Virus record (IMG/VR): IMGVR_UViG_3300027917_000033
Span: 1-64,000 of that record
Origin: a virus
Reading direction: 5' to 3' (one strand)
Length of the DNA: 64,000 bases
Below, piece after piece: positions 1-64,000 of this stretch. The notes under the pieces are model-generated. The model did not search any database and was not told the origin of the DNA. It worked only from the letters and a program-made list of their open reading frames with translations. Positions within the stretch are counted from its first letter, which is position 1, and each line of letters opens with the position of its first letter. A program made the position numbers and the translations under genes.

Positions 1-63
1 CGTCCGGGGGGGGGAGGGGGGGGGACCACGGGGAAGGGGGGAGGAGGCCCGGTGGGGGGTGGG
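1..63. repeat. G-rich low-complexity run at window start
   Basis: Several G5-G9 runs; may be a contig-end artefact or a G-quadruplex-prone terminus. Confidence 0.5.
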
Positions 64-16913: not shown

Positions 16914-17261
16914 ATGAAGTGGCACGACGAAGAACTGGCATTGAATGGCACACCAAGCGATGTTTTGGCAAGTCTTATTGGCAAAGCTGATGTTAGCGAC
17001 GACAAAGTCGTTGTGTCACTGTGTGTGTATATTTCGCATATGCAAGAGACTGCATCAGTGGTATGGAAAAGTAAAACTATCAGATTGTGGAAACAGTTTG
17101 ATACTATCACAGCTGAAGACATATCAGATAAGTTCGCCATATGGGTTTCTAAGTTTCATAGCAGGACAAAAGATTTTCTTCAGCTCATTAGAAATTGTGC
17201 AATCAAAGCGAAACCAGATGCTATGAAATGGTTTATGGCTAAATACCAATTTTGGAAATGA
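16914..17261 (+). CDS. Hypothetical protein
   Basis: Fills the gap between minus-strand genes. Confidence 0.6.
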   Translation: MKWHDEELALNGTPSDVLASLIGKADVSDDKVVVSLCVYISHMQETASVVWKSKTIRLWKQFDTITAEDISDKFAIWVSKFHSRTKDFLQLIRNCAIKAKPDAMKWFMAKYQFWK

Positions 17262-18234
17262 CTAAGTTACATTTATCTGCTTCGTTATAATACCCAAACG
17301 CTTCGAACATCGTCTGTATCCTGCTGAGGTAAGTATGCTTCCTTATCACCTCTGATCTTAATTTTATAGCCTGAGCCTGTCTTTCCTCTGGCGACATTTT
17401 AATATATGTATCACATAGGTCCATGTAGTTATCTGGGTCTGTTGCTAGCGGTAGAGCGTCGGACGAGAAAAATCTGTCGATACCATGCACTGGGTCTGAA
17501 ACTGCAAGTGCTCCACTAGCTGCAACTTTGAATATCCTTTCTGGAATATCTATACCATATTTCGTGGTGTGTGGTTCTACAACACATGGACATATTTTGG
17601 CAGAATTGAACAGTGACTGCACCTGGCCCTGTGAAGCCTTTCCTTTCCATAAATCCTTAGGGCCACTCCACCCAAGCCAAATCGTTTTGTATTTCCTCGC
17701 TACGGGCAATAAATACTTGTCCATATTTATTGCCTTATATCCCCAGTATCCGCCTACCCAACCGACATCACAGACTAAATTTGGAACGGTTGGGCCAGGA
17801 GCATACAGCGTTGTATCAGCCGCATTTGGCATCCCAACAATGTCTATGTCATGGTCCCTCTTCCATCTATACCACCACTGAACCATATCATCTTGTAGAC
17901 CATATCCAAAAACAAATATCGGATTCTGCGCCAAAGTCCATTTTATCGCATCAGCACTTTCGTTGATAACTGGACCACCTGGAACCTGCATAACTTCATC
18001 ACAATACGGGTTGACATGGATGGCTACTTTTGCCTTGTGTCCGCGTGGGAGTTGTTGACGCCACCCAGAACAACCAATATAAATATCAGGAGGATTCCTG
18101 TCCCAGGTGTTTTGGTCGCCGTCCCATAGCAACGGCTTGTGGCCCATTATTCTTAACGCATTACACCATCCCTTCGCTATTTCAAAAAATGCGCCGGACT
18201 TAGAATTGGTTACAAATACGGTGAGTTTAGACAT
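17239..18234 (-). CDS. GT-B glycosyltransferase (CgeB/GT4-like)
   Basis: NAAD...DVGWVG, ERIFKVAASGA, HTYLSRI. Confidence 0.8.
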   Translation of the reverse strand: MSKLTVFVTNSKSGAFFEIAKGWCNALRIMGHKPLLWDGDQNTWDRNPPDIYIGCSGWRQQLPRGHKAKVAIHVNPYCDEVMQVPGGPVINESADAIKWTLAQNPIFVFGYGLQDDMVQWWYRWKRDHDIDIVGMPNAADTTLYAPGPTVPNLVCDVGWVGGYWGYKAINMDKYLLPVARKYKTIWLGWSGPKDLWKGKASQGQVQSLFNSAKICPCVVEPHTTKYGIDIPERIFKVAASGALAVSDPVHGIDRFFSSDALPLATDPDNYMDLCDTYIKMSPEERQAQAIKLRSEVIRKHTYLSRIQTMFEAFGYYNEADKCNLVISKIGI

Positions 18235-23357: not shown

Positions 23358-23603
23358 ATGGCTACAGCTCACGTCGTAACATATGGACCGAAGCGGATTG
23401 GGGCCGATGGAGAAGCACTTGGGCAGGGGGCCCTTATTTCAGAACATGCTACATCCAGCACGGAAATGAGGATATTTCCGAATAATAATGTACCAAATTC
23501 TGAAAATTATCCAACTATCGAAGCATATTTGACGAATGAAGCGACTGACGGATTTGAGCCCAAAATAATTACAAACACTATGATAGTTACGTATAAGCCG
23601 TAA
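23358..23603 (+). CDS. Hypothetical (possibly virion) protein
   Basis: Strong RBS; isolated + strand gene. Confidence 0.7.
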   Translation: MATAHVVTYGPKRIGADGEALGQGALISEHATSSTEMRIFPNNNVPNSENYPTIEAYLTNEATDGFEPKIITNTMIVTYKP

Positions 23604-24492
23604 GATTCTGGAATGGTCCGAGATATCTCGGTAGGTCAACTTTAAGTCCCCGCACTTTATTATCCATAATTGTCTTTTCTATCCTGACACGGTTAAATTT
23701 AACTGGTGAAAATTGTTTCGCCTCAACATATGCGCTGTTGTCTGCTAGATATGGGCACAATGACAAATCAATTAATTTCCTATTGGTATTAAATAGTTCG
23801 TGCCCAACATGCACCAACTCCCCGTCGATCATGGCAACGGCTTTGTCCGAATCCAAAAACTTTTGTCTCTTCTTGGGGTCTTCTGCCATCTCTCTTGATC
23901 TGACTTCACCTACATTGTAATAACCAATTAGATTGTCGGACTTGTCGCCCATTAGTGCCTTAGTTACAATGACATCGATGGACGGCTTTGGCAACACTTG
24001 TTGGTCTTTTGATAACGGATTATATATTGAAACATGGCCGTATTTGTATGGAATCTGCTGGAAGTCCCCGTCACTTGATACAATTACAGTTTTTCCATTG
24101 TTTATCGAGCAGAATGCATATATTAAATCGTCTGCTTCCATAGCAGGCACGTAGTATTGTCTACAATTCATGTCCTGGAAAAACAGAATAGCTAAACTTA
24201 ATTGGCGTTTCAATTCTTCGCGTATATTGAACCCTAGATCCTTGTACTTATCAACCCTGTGCTCTTTATAATATGGCAGTATGCCTCTGCGCCATACTTC
24301 GTTTCTTGGGGCATCCCAAAAGACATGCACGGCTTTGGGTTTTAGTAGATTAATATAATTGCTTAGAAACCTTATCAGTATTACCGCATAATCATGCCCA
24401 GTACTCTTAAAATAAGAGTCGTAATAGCCAGCAAAAATTGCTCGATATATCGAGTTTTTGCCATCAATTAGTAGGTGTTCAACATCTTCCAT
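23587..24492 (-). CDS. 5'-3' exonuclease / flap endonuclease (T4 RNase H-like)
   Basis: LLIDG, VFWD, YKEHR, EADDLI, SSDGDF, GDKSDN. Confidence 0.9.
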   Translation of the reverse strand: MEDVEHLLIDGKNSIYRAIFAGYYDSYFKSTGHDYAVILIRFLSNYINLLKPKAVHVFWDAPRNEVWRRGILPYYKEHRVDKYKDLGFNIREELKRQLSLAILFFQDMNCRQYYVPAMEADDLIYAFCSINNGKTVIVSSDGDFQQIPYKYGHVSIYNPLSKDQQVLPKPSIDVIVTKALMGDKSDNLIGYYNVGEVRSREMAEDPKKRQKFLDSDKAVAMIDGELVHVGHELFNTNRKLIDLSLCPYLADNSAYVEAKQFSPVKFNRVRIEKTIMDNKVRGLKVDLPRYLGPFQNLTAYT

Positions 24493-24500
24493 ATAAGGAA

Positions 24501-24524
24501 TGGGGGCAGGTTTCCCTGCCCCCA
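24501..24524. terminator. 10-bp stem hairpin downstream of the SSB gene
   Basis: tgggggcagg-tttc-cctgccccca. Confidence 0.55.
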
Positions 24525-24551
24525 CCCGCACTACCATGAGCACCGGAGAGG

Positions 24552-25598
24552 TTAGATATTATCGTCCTTAATTTGCCCCATTAGTTTTTGTAACTCAGGA
24601 TCATCGATTTCACTAACTGAAGATTGTGGCTCTGGCGCTGATTTTGGTGCTGGCGCTGACGCCTTCTCTGGTTGCGTCGATTTGGTGCTGCTTGGCATAC
24701 ACTCCTCTTCGTCTTCGTCACTCTTTGGCGTGCTTTTCTTTGGTGCATCCTTAGGCGTTTCAAGGGCATCTGTGCTTCCGGTGCCGACTTTACTCAGCAT
24801 TTCGGTCAGAGCAGCAACATCTCTAGGTGGCACCTTATCCCAGATATCAAAACGCTGGTCAAGAATCGTTTGAATTTCATCGCTTGAATCTGCCAACTGG
24901 TATTTGCTGGTCAAAAACTTGGACTTTTCGTAGTTATTGTACCCGCCCTTGTGCGTTATTTCAAGCTGGAAGATCAAGCATTCGTGTGGATCATAGAAGA
25001 TGCCCCATGGAAGCGGATCCTCAGCATCTCCTGGTCCACTACGCATTAATACTTCTTCAGTCTTATCAAAGACTGTTTTTGGCATATTGTACCACATCAC
25101 CTTACCATGTAGGTCAGTTGGGTTAACTTTCGACGGTGGGAAGTAAATGTTGACATTGAATGATGGCCTCGGCAGATATAGCTTGCTGATCCTCCTGCGT
25201 TCTTCTTCAATGTCAGTCTGGTTTCTGAGCTCGAAGCCCAGCTCACACCATGGGCATTGCTCGTCGTCAAATAGCCTTGGGCATCCGTATGGCCTAGTAT
25301 TGATCCAATGCAGCCCGCCATTTACCGAGAAAGATACTTCTACAAGTCGTCTCTCTTCGATGGTTTCGGCTGATGGTTCTTGCCCGGCAACTTTATACAT
25401 GGTTTTTGTTACTGTGCCCCCAGCGCACTTCTCCCCCTTTATCAGCCCAGGCAATATGATAAATCTGAATTTAGCTGTTTCATCAGGTTTTACGTTAGGG
25501 GGCCTAAATTGATTTGGGTCTCTACTCCCACTTTTCTGTTCTTTCATTCCCTTTTGAATTTTAGCTAACAATTTTTGCCTCTGTTCTGAATCCATCAC
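24552..25598 (-). CDS. gp32-like single-stranded DNA-binding protein
   Basis: FRFIILP, H...CP...CPWCE zinc site, YEKSKF, acidic tail; replication context. Confidence 0.8.
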   Translation of the reverse strand: MMDSEQRQKLLAKIQKGMKEQKSGSRDPNQFRPPNVKPDETAKFRFIILPGLIKGEKCAGGTVTKTMYKVAGQEPSAETIEERRLVEVSFSVNGGLHWINTRPYGCPRLFDDEQCPWCELGFELRNQTDIEEERRRISKLYLPRPSFNVNIYFPPSKVNPTDLHGKVMWYNMPKTVFDKTEEVLMRSGPGDAEDPLPWGIFYDPHECLIFQLEITHKGGYNNYEKSKFLTSKYQLADSSDEIQTILDQRFDIWDKVPPRDVAALTEMLSKVGTGSTDALETPKDAPKKSTPKSDEDEEECMPSSTKSTQPEKASAPAPKSAPEPQSSVSEIDDPELQKLMGQIKDDNI

Positions 25599-25603
25599 TC
25601 CTC

Positions 25604-26089
25604 CTAAGTCGATTCTCTCTGCTCTTGGCGCTTAAATCCAGCTAATGACCGGAGATGGTCAGATTTCATCTTGATTGCGTCAACTATGTTGTATAACTTA
25701 CCCATAGTTCTATTCGCAAGGATAAGTTGAGTCTCTATCCTTAATAGCTCATCATCCTTTTCGACCAATTCCCTAAATACCTTTTCCGGGATTTTTGGCC
25801 AATCTTCTTTTCTCGATTCCTGTATGATCATTTCATAGGCTATAGCTCTTCTCCTTTTTGCTTTTCTATCTAAACTTGCTACTGTCGCTTTCTGTTCGCT
25901 ATATACAGCAGCCCAAAATGCAAACTCTTGCGGAGTTGTAGTTAGGTCTTCCTCCAATGTTTCGTAGTCAATCTTTAAATCGGGTCTGAAGTCTCTTTCT
26001 ACGATATTCTTTTCACCCATATCGACTCTGATTCTGATAACCCGCTTTATTAAATCTTCACTCAGATTCTCTGAGAACCAGTCCTTCAT
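25604..26089 (-). CDS. UvsY-like recombination mediator
   Basis: Helical ~160 aa between SSB and polymerase; C-terminal IVDAIKMKS..LR pattern. Confidence 0.55.
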   Translation of the reverse strand: MKDWFSENLSEDLIKRVIRIRVDMGEKNIVERDFRPDLKIDYETLEEDLTTTPQEFAFWAAVYSEQKATVASLDRKAKRRRAIAYEMIIQESRKEDWPKIPEKVFRELVEKDDELLRIETQLILANRTMGKLYNIVDAIKMKSDHLRSLAGFKRQEQREST

Positions 26090-27195
26090 CTGAAATCCCT
26101 ATAAAATTTCCATTCTTTCCAAACCTTCCCGATATATACTCTCAACGGGAATCTTGGGAACTCATCTAGCGGCTTTATCATGATATCAGATGCGGCTTTT
26201 ATGATATGTGGAACCAATCCGGGCCTGCTAGCAAATACGACCGAATCATGTGTTTCAGTCACCAGATACTTCTTTAATTCAGGTGCCATGCGTATCAAGC
26301 TTGATTGCATAGCATGCGCAACCGTTCCCTGCAGCACAGCATTAAATACACTTTTTTCGTCTCTGTCACCAATTTTAAATCGTCTACCTAGCAAAGAACT
26401 CAGGTAGCCATCCTTTGCCAACTTTTGTGCCTGTTTGATCATCCACTCTCTTAATTCAGGAAATACTTCCAATATTGGTGACTCCAAATCTATCGAGTAT
26501 ATTGTTCTAAGATATAGTCTTTTGCATTCATCACGAGGTATGTCTAATGCTTCGCTCAGCATCGTGTGTGGGTCTGACTTCTGAAAGCTCTCATTTAGGT
26601 ATTCGTCATTAGAAAACGCTGCGGCAGCTCTAATGTCAGCTGCTATCCAATCAAGACAGACTAATACGTCTTCGTCATTGCCGGTGTTTATTGGCGTACC
26701 ATTCGTTATGCCTTGCATGTTATATCTAGTACATCTAGACCTACCTGTAAACGTATCCAATTCATAGCTAGGGTAGACACGTTGCTCATCTAGGTACAAT
26801 TCTCTGCTTTCCATAACCTTATAGACTTCAGCGCTTCTGCCAAGCAAGTTCCGCCATTTGGTCGGTTGTGGGTTGGCGCTGATGATTGTTTGGAATAACA
26901 TCGCAAGTTGCTTGTCGCTTGCTCCGTTCGGTACGTGAATATTTAACTGGTTAAGCTTGCTGGTATCGAGTATGTTGAAAGCGTAGAGATGTGCTTTAGG
27001 GTTGTTTAGTAGAACCTGTGTTTTGCTTGATGTAATTATTTCTGATATCTGACTGATAGTTTTGTTAACTTCATACAAAGTTTTCCCGGTCCCCTTAGCA
27101 TACAATGGGTATGTGCTATTGTGCTCGCCATCGTTTATAAATGTAACTAGCGGCTTTGGTGGCGTGTTGCTATCGAATGCCGTAAAGATGATCAT
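26086..27195 (-). CDS. Minimal family A DNA polymerase domain
   Basis: TFTGR, motif A LDWIAADIR, motif B RxxxKxxxxxxxY, QGT, motif C THDS. Confidence 0.85.
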   Translation of the reverse strand: MIIFTAFDSNTPPKPLVTFINDGEHNSTYPLYAKGTGKTLYEVNKTISQISEIITSSKTQVLLNNPKAHLYAFNILDTSKLNQLNIHVPNGASDKQLAMLFQTIISANPQPTKWRNLLGRSAEVYKVMESRELYLDEQRVYPSYELDTFTGRSRCTRYNMQGITNGTPINTGNDEDVLVCLDWIAADIRAAAAFSNDEYLNESFQKSDPHTMLSEALDIPRDECKRLYLRTIYSIDLESPILEVFPELREWMIKQAQKLAKDGYLSSLLGRRFKIGDRDEKSVFNAVLQGTVAHAMQSSLIRMAPELKKYLVTETHDSVVFASRPGLVPHIIKAASDIMIKPLDEFPRFPLRVYIGKVWKEWKFYRDFR

Positions 27196-27584
27196 GTATA
27201 ATATTGGCGCTTCTTCTTCGGCTTTCGTAGATTGTTTTTTATCTCGTCAACTTCTCCGGGTTGCCTAAGACTTGCGTATGGGTCTTCTCCTTTGTCTAGC
27301 TTGTATAGATCCATGTCTCTTTGACAACCTTTTCTGTCGAGATAGCCATATCCACGAATGTAAGATACTGGTGCGCCAATGCCCTCAAGAGTTTTGATGG
27401 CTTCTCCGTTGCATAGAGGGCACTTGATAGGTGGGTCCAATAACATCCGATGTCTTTCTTCCCATACTAAATCACCGCTCTTTACAGCGACAATTGTATT
27501 TTTTATGGTATTCTTTTTGCCTGTTTGTTTCTTAAGATCATCAAATTTACACCCCTTAGCACATCTATAATGATATGTTGGCAT
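27192..27584 (-). CDS. FmdB-family zinc-ribbon protein
   Basis: MPTYHYRC...CPLC. Confidence 0.75.
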   Translation of the reverse strand: MPTYHYRCAKGCKFDDLKKQTGKKNTIKNTIVAVKSGDLVWEERHRMLLDPPIKCPLCNGEAIKTLEGIGAPVSYIRGYGYLDRKGCQRDMDLYKLDKGEDPYASLRQPGEVDEIKNNLRKPKKKRQYYT

Positions 27585-28925
27585 TTAACCTCCTATGGCT
27601 TTGTATGGATCTACCTGGACAACCATTGTATCATAATTTACTTTAGCGCTCAATGTTCTGAATCTCGGCCCATTCCTGTTTTTGGCTATATAAAATCTGA
27701 TACGATTCTGCTTGTATTCGTCAGGAGTTTGGTTTAGACTAACCACATAATCTGAAGGCATCATTTTGCCATATGATTCTGCTGCGCGATTGACGTCGAT
27801 CAAATTGCCGCCATCACCAGGTCCGTTCTTGCCTTTGTCTTTCTTGACTTCCCTATTTGTCTGTGTTGCAGTAAACAGCAATACATTTTCCTTCTTGGCC
27901 AACCCACGCAACTCAGTAGATACGCTCTTTTGCTTTATATAATCTTCCTTATTATATGCGGACCGCCTTGAAACCATCAGCTCCAAATAATCGATGATAA
28001 CCACATCAGGGTTCCAGCCCTTCGTCCTCTTTAACCACTTTATGACCTGGTGTATAGTATCGACACTAATTTCATCTGGCGGAAACTCATAAATTATTAT
28101 ATCACCGCTAGACCCGGCACGTTCTCTATCAATTCGTTCAACCATTCTGTCTTTGTTTGAATATCTTTGTGAAATCGGCATTCTAGTAAAGACACCGCTG
28201 TACCTCAATTTAGTCTTGTGTGTTGAGATCTCCAATGTTATGTGCAGGACTTTCTGGTTTGCTCTGAAGCACATAGCACCGGTATTGACTAGTATCATAG
28301 TTTTCCCAATACCGGTTGGTGCCATCCAGACAAAAACATCGCCCTTTGTTGGCCCACCCTCATTGATCCATCTATCAAGATCTTTAAAGCCGGTCGTAAG
28401 TTTTACCTCTGTGCTTGTATCAAATATCGTTTGATATGTCTTAAAGAATTGATCACCAGTCTGTGATACATCTACTATCCTTTGGGCATTTTCTACTATG
28501 TCGCCCAATGAGTCAAAATCGCCTCTGTCATATGCATCCATTGCGTCTTTGCTGTATAGTAAACCGTAAGCTTTTTCTCTTGCCCATCCGATAAGAGTGT
28601 CTTTGACAACCGGGATCTCCCTTGGATCAGATTCGCGGTCGATTATGTCTATGACGTCCTGGTATTCGTCATCTACTGTAAGCCTTTTTAATGCTATATC
28701 TTTAACCATCTCCCGTGTTGGTACGATTTCGTGCTGCTCATACAACATATCTATGATTGCGAACACGTATTGTACGGCAGGATTGTTGAAATATTTTACG
28801 TCGAGGTGTTGGCCAACTGAACTATAAAATTCTGGTGAGGAGAATGCTAATGATATTATTGCTTTTTCTTCATTTGGTCCAAATGGTTGGTTAAGACTCT
28901 GATCCATTAGGAAAATGCTTATCAA
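27585..28925 (-). CDS. dnaB: Replicative DnaB-like (gp41-type) helicase
   Basis: APTGIGKT, ITLE, IIDYL, TATQTNR, KNRNG. Confidence 0.92.
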   Translation of the reverse strand: MISIFLMDQSLNQPFGPNEEKAIISLAFSSPEFYSSVGQHLDVKYFNNPAVQYVFAIIDMLYEQHEIVPTREMVKDIALKRLTVDDEYQDVIDIIDRESDPREIPVVKDTLIGWAREKAYGLLYSKDAMDAYDRGDFDSLGDIVENAQRIVDVSQTGDQFFKTYQTIFDTSTEVKLTTGFKDLDRWINEGGPTKGDVFVWMAPTGIGKTMILVNTGAMCFRANQKVLHITLEISTHKTKLRYSGVFTRMPISQRYSNKDRMVERIDRERAGSSGDIIIYEFPPDEISVDTIHQVIKWLKRTKGWNPDVVIIDYLELMVSRRSAYNKEDYIKQKSVSTELRGLAKKENVLLFTATQTNREVKKDKGKNGPGDGGNLIDVNRAAESYGKMMPSDYVVSLNQTPDEYKQNRIRFYIAKNRNGPRFRTLSAKVNYDTMVVQVDPYKAIGG

Positions 28926-32601: not shown

Positions 32602-33003
32602 ATGGAAGATAAGATAGAAATCATCGAACTTGGATTGGACGAAGATCTTAAGAAGGATATTGAGGATTCGGCTAAATTGTCAGACGACATACAAATTAAA
32701 TTGAAAAACCAAGTACAAGGTATGACCAAACAAATGATAAATAAGAAAGCCCAAGAAAAGAAAAAATGGGAAGGAAAGTTAGATATTATATATGAAATTC
32801 TGTTAGAATCATACGAACGTGATCCACAGAAGCATGTTCCCAAAACTACCATAATAGAAGCCATATCGTGTAGTGACAAAGAACTATCAAGTACGATCTT
32901 GCGGTTTAAGCGTTATTTAAGAACCACCAAGGAAGACAAGTGGACATTGATGCGTAAAAAGGTTAGGGGCATAACTAGTTACGCACTTGCTCCCTTTGCC
33001 TAA
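32602..33003 (+). CDS. Hypothetical (possible winged-helix) protein
   Basis: Helical ORF; weak. Confidence 0.6.
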   Translation: MEDKIEIIELGLDEDLKKDIEDSAKLSDDIQIKLKNQVQGMTKQMINKKAQEKKKWEGKLDIIYEILLESYERDPQKHVPKTTIIEAISCSDKELSSTILRFKRYLRTTKEDKWTLMRKKVRGITSYALAPFA

Positions 33004-33700
33004 GCCCAACAATCAATCTGCACAGCAAGCTAACCTGTCTACTAAAAGCCTCTTTTCTAACTTTGTCGGCTAAATTTCTAGGAGATGGATGATATATTGC
33101 AAATATTTTCTTGCCAGCCAATTCTGAGTGAGTTAGCTTCCCAAGGGCTTTTGCGTATATTGCGTCCGGGCAGAAATGGTTGAATGAAATAGCTCCAAGC
33201 GTAATCAAAAAATCTGGGTTTAATATGGCAAGTTCCATTTGCAAGAACGGGTGGCATTTCTGGATACTATCATACTCTGGCTTAGCATTATTTTCTGTAT
33301 AGCATTTGCAAATGTTGGTTATGTAAAAATCCTTCCGTTCTAAACCATTCTTTTCTATTTCTCTGTTGAAATTTATGCCAGCTTGCCCCACGAATGGTTC
33401 ATCCTGATGGCACTCATTGACTCCTGGATTTTGCCCGACTATCATATACTTACTAGGTGTCATAGTGCTAAATACATGCTGGTCATACCCGTAGTGTTTT
33501 CTGCCGAGATGGCACATGATGCAATCTTTACAAGTGTCTCTTAGCGATCTCAGCATTGTTATTCTGTCGTCGTTCACTGGTTTCCAATCGAAGTGTCTGA
33601 TCTCCCTAACAATTCTATCTTCTTCACTGTTGTACACTAAATAATTTCCGAATCGAAGTGGCAATATCATAAAAATAATCCCATCTAGCATTACTACCAA
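32975..33700 (-). CDS. udg: Uracil-DNA glycosylase, family 4 (Fe-S)
   Basis: CxxCHL, GQNPG..E...PFVGQAG, TNICKC, ITLG, YHPS. Confidence 0.92.
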   Translation of the reverse strand: MVVMLDGIIFMILPLRFGNYLVYNSEEDRIVREIRHFDWKPVNDDRITMLRSLRDTCKDCIMCHLGRKHYGYDQHVFSTMTPSKYMIVGQNPGVNECHQDEPFVGQAGINFNREIEKNGLERKDFYITNICKCYTENNAKPEYDSIQKCHPFLQMELAILNPDFLITLGAISFNHFCPDAIYAKALGKLTHSELAGKKIFAIYHPSPRNLADKVRKEAFSRQVSLLCRLIVGLRQREQVRN

Positions 33701-35040: not shown

Positions 35041-35474
35041 CCCCCTTTCTTATCGCGGTTTTGTCTAGATTCAAGAAGGTGCTTCTTCCATTTTTCGCCA
35101 CATTCGAAACACATATTGAAGTCCATATGCTTGGGAATTACTTCAGATGGTCCCTCTTCTTTTTTGTTTTTATCTACTACCACCTTGGTTACAATTAATT
35201 GGTAGTACGTGAAAGACGCTCCCTTGCTGTACTTCGGGCACGAATCACATTTTATCTGTAAAGGGGTGATAGGGCCAAGGTTTTCAATACACTTATTCTT
35301 GATGTTAGCAAAGCATGATTCACATATATCACATGAATCAATCATTTTGGGCGGCGATGAAAACCCACCGTTAACTGAAATTTCTACTCTGTCGAACGAA
35401 TAATACGTGAAATCATTTCTATATGCCGACGTACAGATATCACACTCTATACCATCCTTTGATTTAAGAAGCAT
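35031..35474 (-). CDS. Double zinc-finger protein
   Basis: CDIC, CESC, CDSC, CFEC. Confidence 0.7.
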   Translation of the reverse strand: MLLKSKDGIECDICTSAYRNDFTYYSFDRVEISVNGGFSSPPKMIDSCDICESCFANIKNKCIENLGPITPLQIKCDSCPKYSKGASFTYYQLIVTKVVVDKNKKEEGPSEVIPKHMDFNMCFECGEKWKKHLLESRQNRDKKGGWS

Positions 35475-37827
35475 CTTTCATCTCCAGTGGAAGGATAATC
35501 GACCCAGGCCTTATGTTGAAACTAGAGTATTCTTCCTTCCATGCAACCCTGATTCGTATTCCGACTCCTTCCTGAAACAAAGATGGGTCATTAATTGACA
35601 ATTCGCTATTCCAGACCATGATTTTGGCCAGTTCTACACCATCAGTCACCATCATTTGCATGAATTCACCACTAGCGCCTCTGCGCATTTCTAAACTTTC
35701 TATTACAGCTTCCAGTATTCCATGTGTTTTGGCGTCTGTTACAGTGTGGCCTTCGCAATTGTAGGCATCAAGCGGCGAGTTCCAATAATACCCAAGATAC
35801 TGTTTCTCAAACGCGAGTTTTTCGGTAAACTTGTAATCGTCATATAGTTCTTCTATCTTAGTTAATGTTGGGTTTGGTTTTGGTTTCCAATTTTCTATGC
35901 TCTTAGGCACCTTTTTTCTGTTTGGGTATTGCACAAGATACTCAGCTTTTCTACGCTGTCGTTCCTTTATTATATCAGATTCTTGCCATGCAAGTTTTTC
36001 GTTGACTTCTTTCTTGATTTCCTTGTGTTCTTGGCCGGAAGTAGTATATTTGTAAAGGTACCAATGCCACAAAGCTCGCCGGTTTGGGCATATTTCGTTA
36101 AATGCGCCTAGCTTTATTAATCTCTCAAAAACTGTTTTATTCTTACCCGCTTGGACTATGAACTCATCTATTGAATCTGTGCTTCTTTCGCCAGCTATTT
36201 TCTGGGCAGCTTTGATACCTATACCTTTTATGCTTTCAAGCCCAGGCGTAACCATGTCTCCGTCAACAGAGAAAGTCGGCCCAAGCTTGCGAAAATTAAT
36301 AGCACCAAACTTAACACCTTCGGCTCTGGCTATACCCATATATCTAACTAATTTGTCGTGTTTACAATTAGACATCACCGCAGCCCACCATTCTGCTGGG
36401 TAATGTGATTTGAGCCACAAACACCTGTACGAAATAATTACGTAGGCTATCGCATGGCTAAGGTTGAAACAATACCTAGCAAATGATTCGATTTTGCTCC
36501 ACCATTCAATTGCCTTTGCGCCCCCTATTGTCTTGGTTGCGCCATCTATTACTTTGTCTTTAACCTTGGCAAGCTTGTCGGCCCACTTTTTGGCAACGGC
36601 TTTGCGTGCTGCTTCAGCTTCTGGGATTGAGAATCCACATATGTCGGTGAAGAATCTACTTAATTGTTCTTGGAACACTATAATATTGTATGTGTCTTTT
36701 AATATCGCTGTAATCCTTGGGTCCTCGTCGTCCTTCCATGATTGGCTGCTTGAATCTCTGCGTTTGATATATTCATCAACTAGAGGCAATGGCCCTGGTC
36801 TGCCAAGAGACGTATAAATCACCAGATCATTAAAGTTTTTAACACCGCCCTTTTGCAGAATGCTCTTGGCGAGGTCTGTCTCAAACTGAAAAATTGTTTC
36901 TACTCGTTTCTGGTCAGCCATTTTGATGGCCAGTGGATCACTAAACCTTATCGGTTCTCGTTTCCCATCGGCAAATACTTCCCATCCAGCTCGATCTTCT
37001 TCCGGGTCCATATTATCCCAATCTATGACCACCCCCCTATTGCCTTCAATTAATTTCTTGCAGTTCCAAATGTGTAACAAATTGGTTAGGCCAAGTATAT
37101 CGAATTTGACGAATCCAAATTTTGATAGCTGCGTGCTCCTGCCTTCTGTCCATGAAGAGGTCCATTGGCCGCCGCTTATTGTCAATGGAATATGGTCTTT
37201 GACAGGAACACTAGAGATAATCAGCCCACCAGCATGCCTACCCTGCGTTTTGATAAGTTTCACAAGTTTGTACGCCAGTGAGACTACGTTCTGGTTTCTG
37301 TCGGCATAATCTTTAAATGCCGGATAAGCATCCGCTGCCTCATCATAATCCATGTCATCAAACTCATCCGGGAGTGTCTTTGTAAGCTTTTGTATTTCGT
37401 CTATGTCTATCCCAAGAGTCCTGCATGTGTCGATTAATGCTAACTTTGGCTTGTACGTCTGCCATAAGCCGACACTGCACACCTTATCGACTCCGTATGT
37501 ATCGGCAGCATACTTCTTAATGTGGTCTCTAGCGATTGGGAGGAAATCAGAATCAATATCTGGATAATCAGGATGATATTGAATGTTTGGTTTTATGCCA
37601 GCTTCTACCGGATCGATATCGGTCAGGCCAAGTAGATGCAGCAAAACAAGACCGTTTGGATTGTCGTCGAGTTTCTCATTCTTTTCATATAATTCAACCC
37701 AGTAATCGGCCATTCCTTGCAATTCTATCTGTTCAAACTCGTATGATAGGCGTTTAGAATATGGCTTTGTGTCCGGTTTCTTAGTTAATGCAACGAGTGC
37801 AATCTTTTTGAGCTCATTCCAAGTCAT
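35464..37827 (-). CDS. dnaE: DNA polymerase III alpha, catalytic/C-terminal part
   Basis: PDIDSDF, GRHAGG, KFDILGL, IFQFE, RPGP, YCFNLSHA, IKGIG, OB-like end. Confidence 0.92.
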   Translation of the reverse strand: MTWNELKKIALVALTKKPDTKPYSKRLSYEFEQIELQGMADYWVELYEKNEKLDDNPNGLVLLHLLGLTDIDPVEAGIKPNIQYHPDYPDIDSDFLPIARDHIKKYAADTYGVDKVCSVGLWQTYKPKLALIDTCRTLGIDIDEIQKLTKTLPDEFDDMDYDEAADAYPAFKDYADRNQNVVSLAYKLVKLIKTQGRHAGGLIISSVPVKDHIPLTISGGQWTSSWTEGRSTQLSKFGFVKFDILGLTNLLHIWNCKKLIEGNRGVVIDWDNMDPEEDRAGWEVFADGKREPIRFSDPLAIKMADQKRVETIFQFETDLAKSILQKGGVKNFNDLVIYTSLGRPGPLPLVDEYIKRRDSSSQSWKDDEDPRITAILKDTYNIIVFQEQLSRFFTDICGFSIPEAEAARKAVAKKWADKLAKVKDKVIDGATKTIGGAKAIEWWSKIESFARYCFNLSHAIAYVIISYRCLWLKSHYPAEWWAAVMSNCKHDKLVRYMGIARAEGVKFGAINFRKLGPTFSVDGDMVTPGLESIKGIGIKAAQKIAGERSTDSIDEFIVQAGKNKTVFERLIKLGAFNEICPNRRALWHWYLYKYTTSGQEHKEIKKEVNEKLAWQESDIIKERQRRKAEYLVQYPNRKKVPKSIENWKPKPNPTLTKIEELYDDYKFTEKLAFEKQYLGYYWNSPLDAYNCEGHTVTDAKTHGILEAVIESLEMRRGASGEFMQMMVTDGVELAKIMVWNSELSINDPSLFQEGVGIRIRVAWKEEYSSFNIRPGSIILPLEMKDAS

Positions 37828-38198
37828 TCTTCCCTACATAATTGTCTAGCCTCGTCGCTTTTATCAAATACCACCTGTATATCTTTATCAATAATCAGAT
37901 CTCTTATTTCTTCAACTAGCTCTCTGTTGGATTTCGGCGTAAGGTCCCATGTAATTTCCTTTCCGTCTGTTTTATATTTCGTCATATTTGCTACATATTG
38001 GTTCGGCGTAGTTACTGTGACGTTCTCAATCTTGACACCCATTGCGGCAAATTTCATAGCTAATAGTTCAACACTATTAACTGTTGCGTTATCTCCGCCA
38101 TCATACACAAATGTCTTCTTTTTGTCCTTGTCTTTAACGATCACACAGAACTTAGTACCGTATTTGCCACTGACGATACCAGCCGTTTCAATCTTCAT
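37824..38198 (-). CDS. Degenerate RNase HI-fold protein
   Basis: TVNSVELLA, TTPNQYV, SNRELVEEI resemble RNase HI but two catalytic Asp are missing. Confidence 0.5.
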   Translation of the reverse strand: MKIETAGIVSGKYGTKFCVIVKDKDKKKTFVYDGGDNATVNSVELLAMKFAAMGVKIENVTVTTPNQYVANMTKYKTDGKEITWDLTPKSNRELVEEIRDLIIDKDIQVVFDKSDEARQLCREE

Positions 38199-38611
38199 GA
38201 AAGCATCTCCAAGTGTGGTATCCCAACAGACTTTGCTAATCTTTTGGCCGTTTTTAATGATGATTTGTGCCAGTCCAGAATGGCATCAACGTCGCCTTTG
38301 TCTACATCTGGCATAGTTTTCCCAATTGTCGATATTTCTTCGGGCCTAAGATTCAATATTTCGCAGAATCCAAACACTAGTGCGCGTAACGTGTGTATGA
38401 TCATGGCACCAACGTCTTCGACAATTCTTGACTCGTCTCCATTTTCATATGCTGCTGCAATCAATGATTCAACAACATCCGGCCATTTAAACATTGAATG
38501 TACAGCTATGAATTGGGTTCTACCAGCGCCTACAATCGATATATAGGCTGCTTCTAATTGCTTGGTTTTATTGATTAACTCTTTTAACTGATTTAATTTC
38601 GTTGGCGTCAT
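38195..38611 (-). CDS. Hypothetical protein
   Basis: Coupled ORF. Confidence 0.65.
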   Translation of the reverse strand: MTPTKLNQLKELINKTKQLEAAYISIVGAGRTQFIAVHSMFKWPDVVESLIAAAYENGDESRIVEDVGAMIIHTLRALVFGFCEILNLRPEEISTIGKTMPDVDKGDVDAILDWHKSSLKTAKRLAKSVGIPHLEMLS

Positions 38612-38945
38612 ATATGTCTAACTTTAATTCTCCTTCGGCTATTCTTATGCCCGATTCAGTACCTTGTATCAGTAGGTGATTGTAAGGTAAGATATTCAAA
38701 GCTATTCTCTTATTCGATGGTATCCGCCACACCCTACCTATTTTGTTATCATAAATATTTACAATTGTGGATATCATTTCCTTTAGTTTCGATATGTTGT
38801 CCAACCTGGCAAAAAACCTCAATTCGTTTGTGAAGTTTTTGTGCGTTGTATTCAAATAGCAATCATCACTGTTTCCAGTCGGATCTATCATTATACTAAT
38901 AGCGCAGAACCCTCTCGACCTTAGTAACTCTATTGCATCGATCAT
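38568..38945 (-). CDS. Hypothetical protein
   Basis: Coupled ORF. Confidence 0.6.
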   Translation of the reverse strand: MIDAIELLRSRGFCAISIMIDPTGNSDDCYLNTTHKNFTNELRFFARLDNISKLKEMISTIVNIYDNKIGRVWRIPSNKRIALNILPYNHLLIQGTESGIRIAEGELKLDIYDANEIKSVKRVNQ

Positions 38946-40333
38946 TCTGCTTTTACATTCAACAGATAACCACCCCTGCTTGGTGACAAAAACCTATTAA
39001 ACGACAGCTTCCATTTTAGTGGATTGAGGCTATGAATTCCTAGCAGATAACATAGCAGTGAGCCGCCCGCTGATCCTCGCGCTGGGCCAACGTCCCATCC
39101 ATTATCTCTTGAATATTGTACTAAATCCATCATTATCAGGAAGTATGATGCAAAACCTTTTGATATTATTCTCTTAAGCTCCTTTTCTACCTGTTGTTTG
39201 TGAGTTACCATTTCGCCGTCCATATGGTATTTAGTCTCGTCGTTGAATAAATTGTGCTTTTTTAGTCTGTCAAATGCAAGCAATGTCAGTTTTCTGTCGG
39301 CATCTGGTATAGACGGCAATTTTGGCGATAGGTCCGGATCGAATCCGTCGCACTTATCTGCTGCGATAATTGTATTGTCACATATCTCTTCGAATTTGTC
39401 GATTGTTACACCATTGCTGTAGCCTTCATCATAAAATGTGGTCCTTAAGTCCGCTCTCGTCTTAAAGAACTGTTCATCCGAATTGACTATAAATAATTCC
39501 GGGTTATCCATCGTGGTGTTCTGGTCTATTGCCATCATGCATTTTTGAACTTCGAAGTCCTCTCTCTTGATGTAGTGACTATCGTTGGTCAACACACCCT
39601 TTATCCTGAATTTATCAGACCAGCCAGCACACATCGCGAACGCCTCTATAGATCCTTCTAGGTCTTTGCCTGGCATTTGCATTTCAATGTACAAGTCATC
39701 TCCGAATATTTCATACATTTTGTGCAACCAATCTTTGGCGATGTCCAAATACCTCTTGGCCGCCGATCTGTTTTTTTCTTTCATGGCCAAGTATGCTAAC
39801 CTGATTTCGTGGCATAGCGGGCCGTTTAGGCAGCCAGTTAATACAAGCAAGCCTTCCCTATGCTTGTCCAGTCTATCGAGCCAAACCCTTGGTTTGTAAT
39901 AGAATCCTATATCCCACGCAGTTGATGTCATATGAATTAGGTTACGATACCCAACTTTGTTTTTGGCCAGTACTGTCAAATGTCTTTGCCTCCTCAAGCG
40001 TTCATATCTCTCAGGGTCAACCAGCTTCAAGGAGGCCCATTTTTGTCCACTAGCCTGGAATTCTTTTAATTCATTGTGATAATCATTGTAGTACACTTCG
40101 CAACCTGCGATGAATTTCACCTTATGCTTTTTGGCGGCAAAATATGCGTCTGGAAATGATGCTAGACTACCATGGTCTGTGATTGCTACGGCTGGCATTC
40201 CAAGTTCAACGCATCTTTCCATATAATCGTTTGGTGATGCTATTCCGTCCAATGGTGAAAATATTGAATGGGTGTGTAGATGGACGAAATTAGTTGGACC
40301 TGGATATTTATCTGCCATCTGGCTCGACGTCAC
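38942..40333 (-). CDS. dnaE: DNA polymerase III alpha, N-terminal part (PHP domain)
   Basis: FVHLHTHS, AITDHG, GCE, YYKPR, TNDSHY, GPARGSAGGSL, FNRFL. Confidence 0.92.
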   Translation of the reverse strand: MTSSQMADKYPGPTNFVHLHTHSIFSPLDGIASPNDYMERCVELGMPAVAITDHGSLASFPDAYFAAKKHKVKFIAGCEVYYNDYHNELKEFQASGQKWASLKLVDPERYERLRRQRHLTVLAKNKVGYRNLIHMTSTAWDIGFYYKPRVWLDRLDKHREGLLVLTGCLNGPLCHEIRLAYLAMKEKNRSAAKRYLDIAKDWLHKMYEIFGDDLYIEMQMPGKDLEGSIEAFAMCAGWSDKFRIKGVLTNDSHYIKREDFEVQKCMMAIDQNTTMDNPELFIVNSDEQFFKTRADLRTTFYDEGYSNGVTIDKFEEICDNTIIAADKCDGFDPDLSPKLPSIPDADRKLTLLAFDRLKKHNLFNDETKYHMDGEMVTHKQQVEKELKRIISKGFASYFLIMMDLVQYSRDNGWDVGPARGSAGGSLLCYLLGIHSLNPLKWKLSFNRFLSPSRGGYLLNVKAE

Positions 40334-61027: not shown

Positions 61028-61651
61028 ATGTGCATGAACCTATTAAAAAACACCAGTTGCTATTTGGCAGGCCCGGTTGAGCACGACAAGAAAGCCACAT
61101 CTTGGAGACAGGATGTGGCTTCTTTCTTATCGGCCAGAAGCGTCAGATCGTACGACCCGCTAATTAAACCACCATGGTTGGACGACATATGCCATGTTGA
61201 TCCGTCTTTATATAAAAAAGCACTAGACGGCGAAACGCAGGTAGACGAAATAAACGGCAAAACGATCGAAATAAAGCCGAGCGACGTTATCGAAGCAAAT
61301 CATATGATGCGTGTTGCTTGCATGCGTATCGTACACGCGGTTGATTGGGTGATCTGTTATTTGCCCATCAAATTCACTGTTGGAACGTTCGAAGAAATAT
61401 TCGAAGCAATCCGAGTCGGCAAACCTGTGTTCTTCTGCTGTCCTAATGGCATACCGTCAACATGGATCTTGTCTGCTGTTGCACGGAATATGAACGAACG
61501 AGAGCGCTATTTCTTTGAAGATTGGGATTCACTAAAAGAGCATATTGTTAGCATAGATATGGGTCTTGTAAAGTTGGACCCAGTTAAGTGGATGTTTTTG
61601 GCGTGGCTCGACTGGGACAAGTACCCGATAGAAACACCGGCATGGAGGTGA
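61028..61651 (+). CDS. Nucleoside 2-deoxyribosyltransferase / dNMP N-glycosidase-like protein
   Basis: YLAGP, WR, YDP, GTFEE (catalytic Glu motif GTxxE), KPV. Confidence 0.78.
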   Translation: MCMNLLKNTSCYLAGPVEHDKKATSWRQDVASFLSARSVRSYDPLIKPPWLDDICHVDPSLYKKALDGETQVDEINGKTIEIKPSDVIEANHMMRVACMRIVHAVDWVICYLPIKFTVGTFEEIFEAIRVGKPVFFCCPNGIPSTWILSAVARNMNERERYFFEDWDSLKEHIVSIDMGLVKLDPVKWMFLAWLDWDKYPIETPAWR

Positions 61652-61654
61652 AAA

Positions 61655-62323
61655 ATGTATAATATAACCGGGAAAATGGAAATCAACATGATCACTCCGG
61701 AGATTGATCCCGCCGCAACATCGAACTTTGCCATGAAATATAGATGCCCGGCAATTGTAATGAAGCCAGAATTTGTTCCGGCCATGATTGTTGATAGGTC
61801 AGCGAAGAGCGGGCAGTATAAAATTATTTCCGCAATCGATTTCCCAAACGGTAAGAATTTTGCCCTAGATAAGCTCAAGAACATTGATCCGATGGGGTTG
61901 GAAGTTGATGGTATGGATATCCTACTGTCGCAGAGGGCCGAAATAGATGTGATGAATGAGCTGAAGACTCTGAAAGAGTTGATCAGGCAGACGATAAACC
62001 CGGCCATGAGCATCAGGGTTGTTCTTAGATGTCATAGTTCTGAATGGAGTAACGTTAAGAACTGTTTTGAAGCAATCAAGAAGCACGCCCCCGATATGAT
62101 TCGTGTAGACCCACATCTTGAATTGCCTAAAGTCGGTTTGGAAGAACATATTGAGTGTTATAGGAAACTGCGCGAAGTGATTGCCAAGCCAGTTAAAATC
62201 TCTGGTAATGTTGATCTAAAGACCATCGAAGAGATTAGTAAAATAGATAAGAATGCCAGATTCGACGTCAATCCGAAGCAGGCATATAATATCGTGAACG
62301 AATTAAACAAAAGAGAGGAATAA
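61655..62323 (+). CDS. DeoC-like TIM barrel, catalytic Lys apparently replaced
   Basis: AIDFPNG, DGMDI, IRVVL, DMIRV (cf. DFVKTS), VKISG. Confidence 0.65.
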   Translation: MYNITGKMEINMITPEIDPAATSNFAMKYRCPAIVMKPEFVPAMIVDRSAKSGQYKIISAIDFPNGKNFALDKLKNIDPMGLEVDGMDILLSQRAEIDVMNELKTLKELIRQTINPAMSIRVVLRCHSSEWSNVKNCFEAIKKHAPDMIRVDPHLELPKVGLEEHIECYRKLREVIAKPVKISGNVDLKTIEEISKIDKNARFDVNPKQAYNIVNELNKREE

Positions 62324-63580
62324 ATGTTTAATACTAACGACATCTTCCATCCAGGCAAATTGACTATCTGCATGGATGCCAGTGCAGGGAGTTCTGGCAA
62401 GGGAAAAGTAGCATCATTCATCTGCGAACACGCAGACAATTGGCAATTTTGTTGCAACACGTTCTCGGCTCAGGCTGGACATTGGGTGAAATTCGAAGAT
62501 AAAACATACTTTTATCAGACCTTCAATAGCTGTGCATATTCTGATAAGTATGAAAAGATGTACATAGGGCCCGGCGCTTCTATGGAATACGAGGCCTTTT
62601 TCAACGAGATGGAAGAGAACAATATTGCGCCGGAAAGAATAGGCATCCACCCGCTATGCGCAATCATTCAAGGCAAAGACGCCGCTTTTGAACGCGGAGA
62701 AGTGGATCTGGATGGAAATCCGGCCAAACACACGGGAACTATGGAGAAAGGTTCTACTTGCCACGGGGTGGGAGTCTGTCGTGCCAGGCGCGTCCTGCGC
62801 AGATCAGATGTCTTGTTGGCCAAAGACGTGCCAGAATTGCAAAGGTTTGTATGCGATACGACCGAGGAGATCACAGGCCGTTTGGAAGCTGGTCAGGCTG
62901 GGCTCCTTGAGATAGCACAAGGATTCCAGTTAAGTCTAATGTTGGAGAAAATGTACCCGTTTACAACAAGTAGGAATGTTACCGTTGCCGCTGGCTTCGA
63001 TGATATGATGCTGCCAATAAAGTACGCTGGTGATATCGTCATGAATTGCCGCACATATCCGATTAGGATTAACAGCAACAAATACCTTGACCCAGATGAC
63101 GGCCACCATCTGGTATGGGATGAAATAGAGCAATATAAGAAAGAGGGCAGGGAGATTACGATATACAAAGGCGATTCAGGACCTGGATACAGTGACCAAA
63201 AGGAAATCAGTTGGGATCATCTGACCGAAATCAGCGGGTCGCCAGAACCCATAATGGAAATGACATCCGTAACCAAGCTTCCTAGGAGGGTGTTCACATT
63301 CAGCCAAGAAAATATCAAGCAAGCGATCAAGTACAATGACACTGGTTGCACGATTTATTTGTCGGTGAATTTTGCTAACTATGTCGATCATGAAATTACA
63401 GGCAAACGTGGCGTGGTGGAACAGCCAGCGCTAATTGGTGATAATCTTACTAGCAAATTTAAGGTATGGATACAGCGTAACATATTACCGCTGCTGGGCG
63501 ATAATGTCAAGTTGCGGTTTGTTGGCACCGGACCCCTTACTGATGACATGATTGTGGTTGGCGAAACATGGCCGGAATGA
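62324..63580 (+). CDS. purZ: Adenylosuccinate-synthetase family protein with PurZ signatures
   Basis: GSSGKG, AGH, QGF, YPFTTSR, RTYPIR, TSVTKLPRRVF, NFAN, GTGP. Confidence 0.82.
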   Translation: MFNTNDIFHPGKLTICMDASAGSSGKGKVASFICEHADNWQFCCNTFSAQAGHWVKFEDKTYFYQTFNSCAYSDKYEKMYIGPGASMEYEAFFNEMEENNIAPERIGIHPLCAIIQGKDAAFERGEVDLDGNPAKHTGTMEKGSTCHGVGVCRARRVLRRSDVLLAKDVPELQRFVCDTTEEITGRLEAGQAGLLEIAQGFQLSLMLEKMYPFTTSRNVTVAAGFDDMMLPIKYAGDIVMNCRTYPIRINSNKYLDPDDGHHLVWDEIEQYKKEGREITIYKGDSGPGYSDQKEISWDHLTEISGSPEPIMEMTSVTKLPRRVFTFSQENIKQAIKYNDTGCTIYLSVNFANYVDHEITGKRGVVEQPALIGDNLTSKFKVWIQRNILPLLGDNVKLRFVGTGPLTDDMIVVGETWPE

Positions 63581-64000
63581 AGAAAATTGTGATCACTGGC
63601 GGTGCGGGCTACATCGGGTCGCTTCTCACTGGCAAGTTTATAGACAGTGGGTATGAAGTCGCGGTCATTGATAAGTTATTGTTCGGTGGCGATCATATGC
63701 TGTGCTATAATCGTGACCAATTTTCTTTGCACCCATATGATATAATGGATATGCCAGATGGTCTGCTTAGCTCGATATGCAGTGGTGCCGATGCAGTTGT
63801 ACATTTGGCAGCATTGGTTGGCTTCCCGGCCTGTCAGCAAGTAGGCCCTTCCGTGTCTAAACGTTACAATGTTGATACCACAAAGAAAATGTTTGATATT
63901 GCGAATGCCGAAGGAGTGGAGAGATTCGTTTTTGCATCTACATACAGCAATTATGGTAAATCATCAGATGGTAAGCCTGTAACTGAGGAATCGCCTCTAA
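63577..64000 (+). CDS. NAD-dependent epimerase/dehydratase (truncated by window end)
   Basis: MKKIVITGGAGYIGS, VVHLAALVG, FASTYSNYG; ATGA-coupled to purZ. Confidence 0.9.
   Translation, partial: MKKIVITGGAGYIGSLLTGKFIDSGYEVAVIDKLLFGGDHMLCYNRDQFSLHPYDIMDMPDGLLSSICSGADAVVHLAALVGFPACQQVGPSVSKRYNVDTTKKMFDIANAEGVERFVFASTYSNYGKSSDGKPVTEESPL

Follow-up and report, generated by a model that had tools for sequence, protein, structure and literature searches.

A long-form PurZ-clade synthetase from a putative jumbo phage and its possible link to 2-aminoadenine DNA

Analysis of a 64,000-nucleotide stretch of viral DNA (positions 1 to 64,000 of the IMG/VR record IMGVR_UViG_3300027917_000033, hereafter the window) indicated that the open reading frame (ORF) at positions 62,324 to 63,580 encodes a protein which, judged by its residues and by two phylogenetic trees, falls in the PurZ clade and forms part of a separate long-form subfamily. 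The best overall explanation, to which we assign a probability of about 0.6, is that this enzyme would synthesize N6-succino-2-amino-2'-deoxyadenylate (dSMP), that the phage DNA would be at least partly substituted with 2-aminoadenine (Z) and that a helper module would be encoded beside the gene. Z genomes have been described in siphoviruses and podoviruses of small size, in which PurZ serves the replacement of adenine by Z and each of which carries a Z-selective polymerase of its own and enzymes that destroy dATP. The record has 87,842 bp, of which the window is the first 64 kb, and since the CheckV completeness of this record is 24%, the genome is expected to be roughly 350 kb, that is, to belong to a jumbo phage. 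In a literature search, no paper was found that connects PurZ with jumbo phages or with phages of the DnaE type.

PurZ-type residues and phylogenetic position of the synthetase

The original prediction had assigned the gene to PurZ on the basis of four motifs set against Escherichia coli PurA. All four motifs, GSSGKG (residues 22-27), RTYPIR (243-248), TSVTKLPRR (314-322) and NFAN(Y) (349-353), are present in the ORF, and MAFFT alignments placed each of them on the E. coli residue that had been named. In these alignments the PurA reference, taken from NC_000913.3, is counted from Met1, the mature number being one less. S23 corresponds to D14 (mature D13), I247 to T272 (mature T271), L319 to R304 (mature R303) and N349-F350-A351-N352 to T331-K332-L333-D334, the TKLD motif; I247 is assigned to the T272 position because the flanking R248 and P246 align with R273 and S271, respectively. 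Alignment of 28 family members revealed that residues G22, S23, S24, G25, K26, R243, T244, P246, I247, R248, T314 to K318, P320, R321, R322, N349, F350, N352 and Y353 are invariant. Ser occupies the D13 position in 37 of the 37 family members aligned, as is typical of PurZ; the same replacement of the catalytic Asp13 is reported for 100% of 147 phage PurZ sequences (PMC12884076).

The roles of the contact residues were taken from the paper on the S-2L PurZ structure (PMC8342488), and 33 contact or loop residues were mapped onto the window protein. Those kept were (S-2L numbers, window numbers in brackets) G22, S23, G25, A50(51), G51(52), H52(53), G130, S131, T132, R146(159), Q190(199), T205(215), R240(248), T273(314), V275, T276, K277, L278(319), R280(321), N305(349), F306(350), N at 308(352), G335 and P336. 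In the numbering of the window protein, the guanine and phosphate pocket (G22, S23, A51, T145, Q199, R159, T215 and R248) and the aspartate loop (T314-S315-V316-T317-K318-L319 plus R321) are kept, and an adenine pocket for the phosphate donor (N349, F350, N352, Y353, G403 and P404) is found in place of TKLD, as in PurZ. The adenine-specific donor pocket of PurZ is formed by N305, F306, Q308/N297 and P336 in S-2L and includes F295 and Y298 in phiVC8. Features favouring a deoxyribonucleotide were also identified, namely L319 at the R303 position, which is likewise Leu in the PurZ of S-2L, SH-Ab 15497 and PMBT28, and I249 in the place of V241, which packs against C2'. Seven of the 12 residues listed in the metaGPA preprint (bioRxiv 10.1101/2025.10.22.683976) as separating PurZ from PurA are identical in the window protein (S14, P233, Y244, W252, T262, F295 and Y298 in phiVC8 numbering), while S273 is replaced by Thr, as in S-2L and PMBT28.

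With these residues, the substrates are most likely 2'-deoxyguanosine monophosphate (dGMP), aspartate and ATP or dATP, and it is quite probable that the enzyme makes dSMP from dGMP. As regards the phosphate donor we follow PMC8342488, according to which the S-2L and phiVC8 PurZ use ATP/dATP, and not PMC12884076, which states that PurZ0 and PurZ prefer ATP and GTP 'respectively'.

A phylogeny including PurA, PurZ and PurZ0, which had been proposed as a check, was constructed as a 148-row quick tree and a 48-row careful tree; both showed the same topology and placed the window protein inside the PurZ clade. The rows comprised the window protein, 13 close relatives, homologues from 17 IMG/VR loci, eight named phage proteins, listed phmmer representatives of 330-485 amino acids with a readable P-loop (six rows were dropped), the PurA of E. 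coli and of two other bacteria, two archaeal GDEGKG PurA and six paralogues from archaea or bacteria in which Gly or Ser takes the place of D13. The sample, with rows drawn from matches to our own query, is biased to relatives of the window protein, and the three bacterial PurA formed the root. The archaeal PurA were sister to a clade of all the Ser/Gly13 sequences (support 99/96 in the 48-row tree). Within that clade the proteins of two actinophages used as PurZ0 stand-ins, Microbacterium phage Sucha and Arthrobacter phage Pumancara, branched first (the labelling is our own; PMC12884076 names Wayne and Ghobes), and the Gly/Ser paralogues branched next. A clade of 36 rows (100/99) united four PurZ that have been studied experimentally, those of cyanophage S-2L, Vibrio phage phiVC8 (PDB 6FM1), Acinetobacter phage SH-Ab 15497 and Salmonella phage PMBT28, with a long-form clade of 19 rows (100/99), which contains the window protein and a putative adenylosuccinate synthetase of Flavobacterium phage MaF61. 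The window protein is nearer to the four reference PurZ than PurZ0 is, and the PurZ assignment is supported by the aligned residues and by both trees.

The four reference PurZ and the window protein have in common the Ser at D13, the Ile at T271, the loss of R303, a T-x-V-T-K aspartate loop and an N-F-x-N/Q-Y ATP pocket, at an identity of only 25-29%. The four reference PurZ come from siphoviruses and podoviruses of about 40-48 kb with adjacent MazZ/DatZ and DpoZ or PrimPol, whereas the window is a jumbo-phage fragment with a split DnaE and none of MazZ/DatZ, DpoZ or PrimPol as neighbours. The PurZ0 share the Ser at D13 and the PIR motif but branch outside the clade joining PurZ and the window protein, and their nucleotide-base pocket reads T-M-x-D where the window protein has N-F-A-N. 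The archaeal short PurA (5K7X/2D7U) have the same short architecture as the window protein but carry GDEGKG and PTRV, are devoid of NFxNY and are sister to the whole Ser/Gly13 clade, while the ATP pocket is missing from the GGEGKG/GSEGKG paralogues, whose branches lie below the PurZ clade. Two short PurA-type genes were observed in each of the metagenome-assembled genomes (MAGs) of Archaeoglobaceae and Methanophagales (G018 and G020; loci L028, L087, L088 and L096), one being a canonical GDEGKG gene and the other a GGEGKG paralogue at the base of the PurZ clade.

Library searches with the window protein gave matches to the Pfam adenylosuccinate synthetase domain PF00709 (E 4.7e-15) and to PHROG 1211, '2-aminooxy adenylosuccinate synthetase' (E 4.7e-31). 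The best solved relatives were 6fm1/6fko/6tnh (E 1e-21), whose sequence is identical to phiVC8 PurZ; the archaeal short PurA 5k7x/2d7u gave the same E value (1e-21), and 7odx, a chain named PurZ, was matched with E 1e-15.

The subfamily is large. A word-indexed search revealed 608 relatives at E <= 0.001, and the 120 listed among them showed 53-88% identity and were located on contigs of up to 369,862 bp. An exhaustive phmmer search of 1.84 billion representatives gave 1338 representatives at E <= 0.001; among the best 150 of these, the D13 position was occupied by Asp in none, by Ser in 110 and by Gly in one, the remaining 39 being fragments or variants whose P-loop pattern was unreadable. 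Searching 50,697 phage records with tblastn gave matches in 87 records, all of which were PurZ-type phages or MaF61. The best match was MaF61 (168 kb; 32% identity, E 3e-50), and among these records no other cultured phage was found with a member of the long-form clade. The MaF61 protein, in the same clade as the window protein, carries GSSGKG, PIRI and NFVNY; unlike in the window, its gene is located among structural genes, between the scaffold and terminase genes, and the phage encodes its own adenylosuccinate lyase. The MaF61 paper is silent on this gene and on DNA modification.

Inteins were observed in all four of the long homologues tested (P0121, P0122, P0126 and P0129; 752-824 amino acids), which harbor Hint or intein-splicing domains and, in three of the four, a LAGLIDADG endonuclease as well; they are apparently inserted at at least two sites, near the G-S-T loop and the T-S-R motif. 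Together, the strict motif conservation across relatives and the inteins point to selection and an important function.

The conserved gene pair upstream of PurZ

The PurZ gene is preceded by a gene coding for a 222-amino-acid protein whose TAA stop directly abuts the PurZ ATG, and a purine-rich sequence, AGAGAGGA, resembling a Shine-Dalgarno element, is located 6 nt before this ATG. The start of the following gene, annotated as an epimerase, overlaps the end of PurZ by 13 nt. Since the neighbouring genes abut or overlap, PurZ is part of a compact operon; scanning the surroundings of this operon for promoters and terminators gave results no better than shuffled sequences. The epimerase showed GalE-like NCBIfam matches, every one below cut-off, and is kept at the same place in only three of 18 loci, two of them near-identical; it is probably a passenger in the PurZ transcription unit.

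The gene order was compared in the window and 17 other loci, among which L002 and L003 are near-identical. A conserved order, consisting of SbcD, SbcC, four unassigned genes, a gene coding for a 207-amino-acid protein, the 222-amino-acid gene, sometimes a small ORF and a deoxycytidylate (dCMP) deaminase, and then PurZ, was found in 11-12 of the 18 loci. The 222-amino-acid gene is located beside PurZ in 12 of the 18, and the 207-amino-acid gene is present in 11.

Analysis of the 207-amino-acid protein gave a weak match to PF15891 (6.2e-5, below cut-off). Its AlphaFold2 model (predicted local distance difference test, pLDDT, 88.4) has the fold of the nucleoside 2'-deoxyribosyltransferases (NDT), which were the first Foldseek matches (E 5.8e-6), followed by the MilB/BcmB N-glycosidases and DNPH1; residues Y12, E18, G119 and E123 are invariant in its family. 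The 222-amino-acid protein gave no match in Pfam (DeoC included), PHROG or NCBIfam. Its AlphaFold2 model is an eight-stranded barrel (pLDDT 92.9) with the fold of deoxyribose-5-phosphate aldolase (DERA), and nearly all the top Foldseek matches listed were aldolases of this type (best E 1.8e-12, template modelling score, TM, 0.75), the exceptions being two designed enzymes derived from DERA; the Atlas structure showed a TM of 0.84 to DeoC clusters. Searches of the two family profiles against PDB sequences gave nothing significant. The hhalign alignments to E. coli DeoC and to the Pumancara DmtZ-DutZ protein were not significant either, and the residue equivalences derived from them are tentative. 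The function of the DERA-fold protein is one that we only infer.

A scan for relatives of the NDT-like gene turned up 36 loci. In all 12 of the closest loci a barrel gene adjoins the NDT-like gene and PurZ is located within 3 kb, 10 of the 12 being on contigs already analysed. In the complete 320-kb genome G023 the NDT-like and barrel genes form a pair, with PurZ about 25 kb away. Here (L135; G023:C1:144000-154000) genes for a dCTP deaminase-like protein, a canonical dUTPase and a thymidylate kinase come after this pair, and the locus is a nucleotide-metabolism cluster apart from PurZ; of the 10 ORFs neighbouring PurZ in G023, nine had no Pfam match and the tenth was a thymidylate kinase near the NDT/DERA genes. 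A PurZ homologue with 52% identity was observed on a 441-kb contig of a Pirellulales MAG bin (L027:7878-10561) as two pieces about 1.2 kb apart, spanning model positions 1-298 and 288-412, as might result from an intron, the insertion of a gene or a frameshift. No NDT-like and no barrel gene was found within 8 kb of it, and the contig may be that of a mis-binned giant phage.

The PurZ0 phages are described as using DutZ, carried by 98 of 98, and DmtZ, a proven NDT-family dAMP hydrolase and deoxyribose-5-phosphate transferase (PMC12884076). The NDT-superfamily gene beside PurZ in the window parallels the NDT-family helper of the PurZ0 system, while DutZ, universal in PurZ0 phages, was not found in the window contig. 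In a tentative alignment the 207-amino-acid protein has Y...E and G-T-x-E-E where DmtZ has Tyr6, Asp12 and Glu103; it differs by an insert of about 50 residues and is neither fused to nor beside a dUTPase, and its sequence did not significantly match the DmtZ-DutZ fusion of Pumancara (hhalign E 0.068; phmmer none). NDT and uracil-DNA glycosylase (UDG) domains have been associated with restriction-resistant dZ contigs (bioRxiv 10.1101/2025.10.22.683976), and the window carries a UDG-superfamily gene and the NDT-like gene, both of them domain types in the metaGPA list. From the folds and the synteny we infer that the module may resemble the logic of the PurZ0 phages, with no DutZ found and with a DERA-fold protein in addition.

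Proposed pathway and alternative explanations

In the pathway that we favour, the enzyme would bind dGMP, aspartate and ATP/dATP and release dSMP, as the conserved contact residues suggest. Host adenylosuccinate lyase and kinases would convert dSMP to the triphosphate of Z (dZTP), as in the established Z pathway. A gene for adenylosuccinate lyase is present in two of five larger related records, neither of them among the two most complete, and 20 further ORFs of the window contig included no purine-pathway gene. The replisome, comprising the split DnaE, DnaB, a gp32-like single-stranded DNA-binding protein (SSB) and a small PolA-like enzyme, would then place Z opposite T, so that the DNA would become at least partly Z-substituted; the odds that the phage DNA holds substantial Z are about even. 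More speculatively, the folds suggest that the two co-transcribed upstream genes could replace DatZ and MazZ, the NDT-superfamily protein removing dAMP or exchanging its base in the manner of the DmtZ of PurZ0 phages, and the DERA-fold protein disposing of or handling deoxyribose 5-phosphate. We put forward this pair as a new deoxyadenylate-clearing route only tentatively, with the chances clearly below even.

It is also conceivable, though unlikely, that the PurZ reaction is real and that there is no Z genome: Z would be minor or partial, or the enzyme would chiefly reshape the purine pools of the infected cell by draining dGMP and dATP, with dATP still free to enter the replisome. Several results weigh against the pathway proposed above and agree with this explanation. 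The 87,842-bp contig, which is 24% complete, gave no match at E <= 1 to YfbR-like/PF12917, PF04447 or dUTPase/PF00692, and no DatZ/HD_3-type, DUF550 or dUTPase-family gene was found in it; PF04447 and PF12917 were searched in this contig only, and DUF5664 only by way of the SH-Ab fusion protein. When 19 helper and DpoZ proteins of six Z phages served as phmmer queries, none of them, the five DpoZ included, had a match in the contig; neither a DpoZ/PrimPol polymerase nor the combination of a dATP-removing enzyme (DatZ, DutZ or DUF5664) with a dGTP pyrophosphatase (MazZ or DUF550), which characterizes a Z cluster, was found there. Among the 18 related records HD_3 occurred in none, MazG in only two, both from distant subgroups, a generic HD domain in four (two above cut-off) and dUTPase profile matches in six. 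As searched, DatZ, MazZ, DUF550 and DutZ were not found in the contig or in the related records. The dUTPase-like genes located beside PurZ in L005 and L006 were considered as DutZ candidates and rejected, being dCTP deaminases (PF22769, 4.6e-29). A dCMP deaminase occupies the same place in other loci, and the deaminases beside PurZ are ordinary pyrimidine metabolism.

The upstream pair is open to objection as well. In a weak hhalign alignment (probability 0.2%), R149 of the DERA-fold protein stands at K167, the Schiff-base residue of DeoC, and among 11 members of the family this column holds R, K or N, while nine of the 11 have K at a K201-like 'K-x-S-G'. A further 23, more distant, NDT-like genes are located in records without PurZ, two of which are giants of 100% completeness. 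In favour of the explanation without a Z genome, a DnaE replicase has no known Z selectivity, S-2L PurZ itself can consume dATP (PMC8342488) and complete replacement is stated to require the removal of dATP as well as the synthesis of dZTP (PMC12697855). Against the absence of a Z genome, the conserved three-gene module with its NDT-superfamily member parallels the DmtZ route of dAMP removal, only 24% of this genome was available to the searches for helper genes, and the strict conservation over hundreds of relatives and the inteins indicate a function of importance.

A second explanation, which we consider improbable, is that the long-form subfamily has shifted to another 6-oxopurine nucleotide, namely deoxyinosine or deoxyxanthosine monophosphate (dIMP, dXMP), GMP or modified dGMP, and would start the synthesis of a different adenine analogue. 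The window protein is about 50-75 amino acids longer than the four reference PurZ, with a 32-residue insert at 251-282 adjoining the 2'-position gatekeeper I249, and its pocket differs from that of all four references at Y/F21 (A21), N49 (Q50), T53 (W54), V241 (I249) and G256 in phiVC8 numbering (T301); A21, Q50 and W54 line the pocket. These differences, which also count against a PurZ activity of the usual kind, mean that the specificity could differ from that of PurZ, although a deoxy substrate would still be expected, given the loss of R303 and the greater bulk of I249 in comparison with V241. The NCBIfam scores leave the protein between the two families: the PurZ model NF038379 scored 135.1 bits against a cut-off of 300 (E 2.8e-39, residues 14-338) and the archaeal-type PurA model NF003295 an equal 135 bits (cut-off 368), and since both are below cut-off the protein is a member of neither PurZ nor PurA by curated thresholds. 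The helper genes likewise differ from those of known Z phages. However, S23, T314, the T-S-V-T-K-L loop, R159, Q199, T215, R248 and N-F-x-N-Y are all PurZ-like, and position 21, an aromatic residue beside the guanine 2-amino group in PurZ, is A in 29 of 37 family members but is kept as F in seven.

It is very improbable that the protein is an ordinary adenylosuccinate synthetase (PurA), encoded by an auxiliary metabolic gene that would raise the synthesis of AMP: the PF00709 match and the label 'adenylosuccinate synthase' given to relatives by several database sources would fit it, but in place of the GDEGKG with Asp13, the R303 and the GTP-specificity motif TKLD of PurA the window protein has GSSGKG with Ser, L319 and NFAN, it groups within the PurZ clade and not with the bacterial or archaeal PurA, and the PurA equivalog models scored 41-135 bits against cut-offs of 368-445.

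Genome context and significance

Table 1. Location of the synthetase gene and of other features in the window (HhH, helix-hairpin-helix)
Feature	Coordinates	Strand	Evidence
Long-form PurZ-clade synthetase (418 amino acids)	62324..63580	+	Open ORF, ATG start, four motifs, PF00709, PHROG 1211, PDB matches to phiVC8 and S-2L PurZ
NDT-superfamily protein, 207 amino acids, candidate (deoxy)nucleotide N-glycosidase or deoxyribosyl transferase	61028..61651	+	
DERA/DeoC-fold TIM-barrel protein, 222 amino acids, directly upstream of PurZ	61655..62323	+	Fold matches
NAD-dependent sugar epimerase/dehydratase	63568..64000, continuing to 64566 of the contig	+	PHROG 540
DnaE N-terminal part: PHP domain and start of the pol III alpha core	38942..40333	-	PF02811 3.9e-42, PF07733 9.8e-27
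DnaE C-terminal part: rest of core, fingers, HhH	35464..37827	-	PF07733, PF17657, PF14579
Small family A polymerase-like protein, 369 amino acids, without exonuclease domain	26086..27195	-	PF00476 2.3e-14
Replication block: DnaB, zinc-ribbon protein, PolA-like, UvsY-like, gp32-like SSB, 5'-3' exonuclease	23587-28925	-	
UDG-superfamily gene, close to DnaE	32975-33700	-	PF03167 1.6e-26
A pair of neighbouring ParB-like genes; two glycosyltransferase genes	11698-13462 and 17239-20131	-	

The original prediction had set the synthetase in a family C replicase context. This holds insofar as the split DnaE is real, but a family A polymerase-like gene is also present in the window (Table 1). Similarly, PurZ occurs together with DnaE here, but long-form PurZ is not tied to DnaE: among the five larger related records a split DnaE was found in two (G023 and G011) and a full-length PolA in one (G010), while G007 and G012 had neither DnaE nor PolA by Pfam. 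G023 and G011 also carry a PolA-like homologue of about 370 amino acids. Three small ORFs (37824-38945) are located between the DnaE halves of the window, one of them with a weak RNase H match, and the best DnaE match was to a 595-kb uncultured phage (30% identity). The 369-amino-acid PolA-like protein matched Taq/Klenow-type PDB entries over residues 242-359. RecA, a flap endonuclease and SbcCD are also encoded in the window.

Comparison of 24 kb of the window with the 50,697 phage records using megablast gave no match, and there is no close cultured relative among these records. The only public runs with the contig were two 2017 runs from one marine-sediment sample, which are kept as contigs and cannot show base chemistry. 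One of the glycosyltransferases is a protein of 634 amino acids with two GT2-type domains. The contig opens with a G-rich run, GGGGGGGGGAGGGGGGGGG... (window 1-60), which is probably a sequencing or assembly artefact.

In a model that we regard as possible and rather doubtful, jumbo phages of the DnaE type would have genomes with substantial Z substitution in the absence of DatZ, MazZ and DpoZ; deoxyadenylate would be cleared by NDT-superfamily and DERA-fold proteins along a new route, and long-form PurZ would supply the dZ nucleotides. As one phage in culture, Flavobacterium phage MaF61, has a member of the clade, the question of Z can be put to a direct test. A conserved giant-phage PurZ subfamily would extend Z-DNA to a different class of viruses and to a family C replisome, and would point to new helper enzymes useful for the production of Z-DNA in cells. 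It would also mean that part of environmental jumbo-phage DNA resists many restriction enzymes, and if the NDT/DERA route were true, Z-DNA would be common among the giant phages of sediments and waters.

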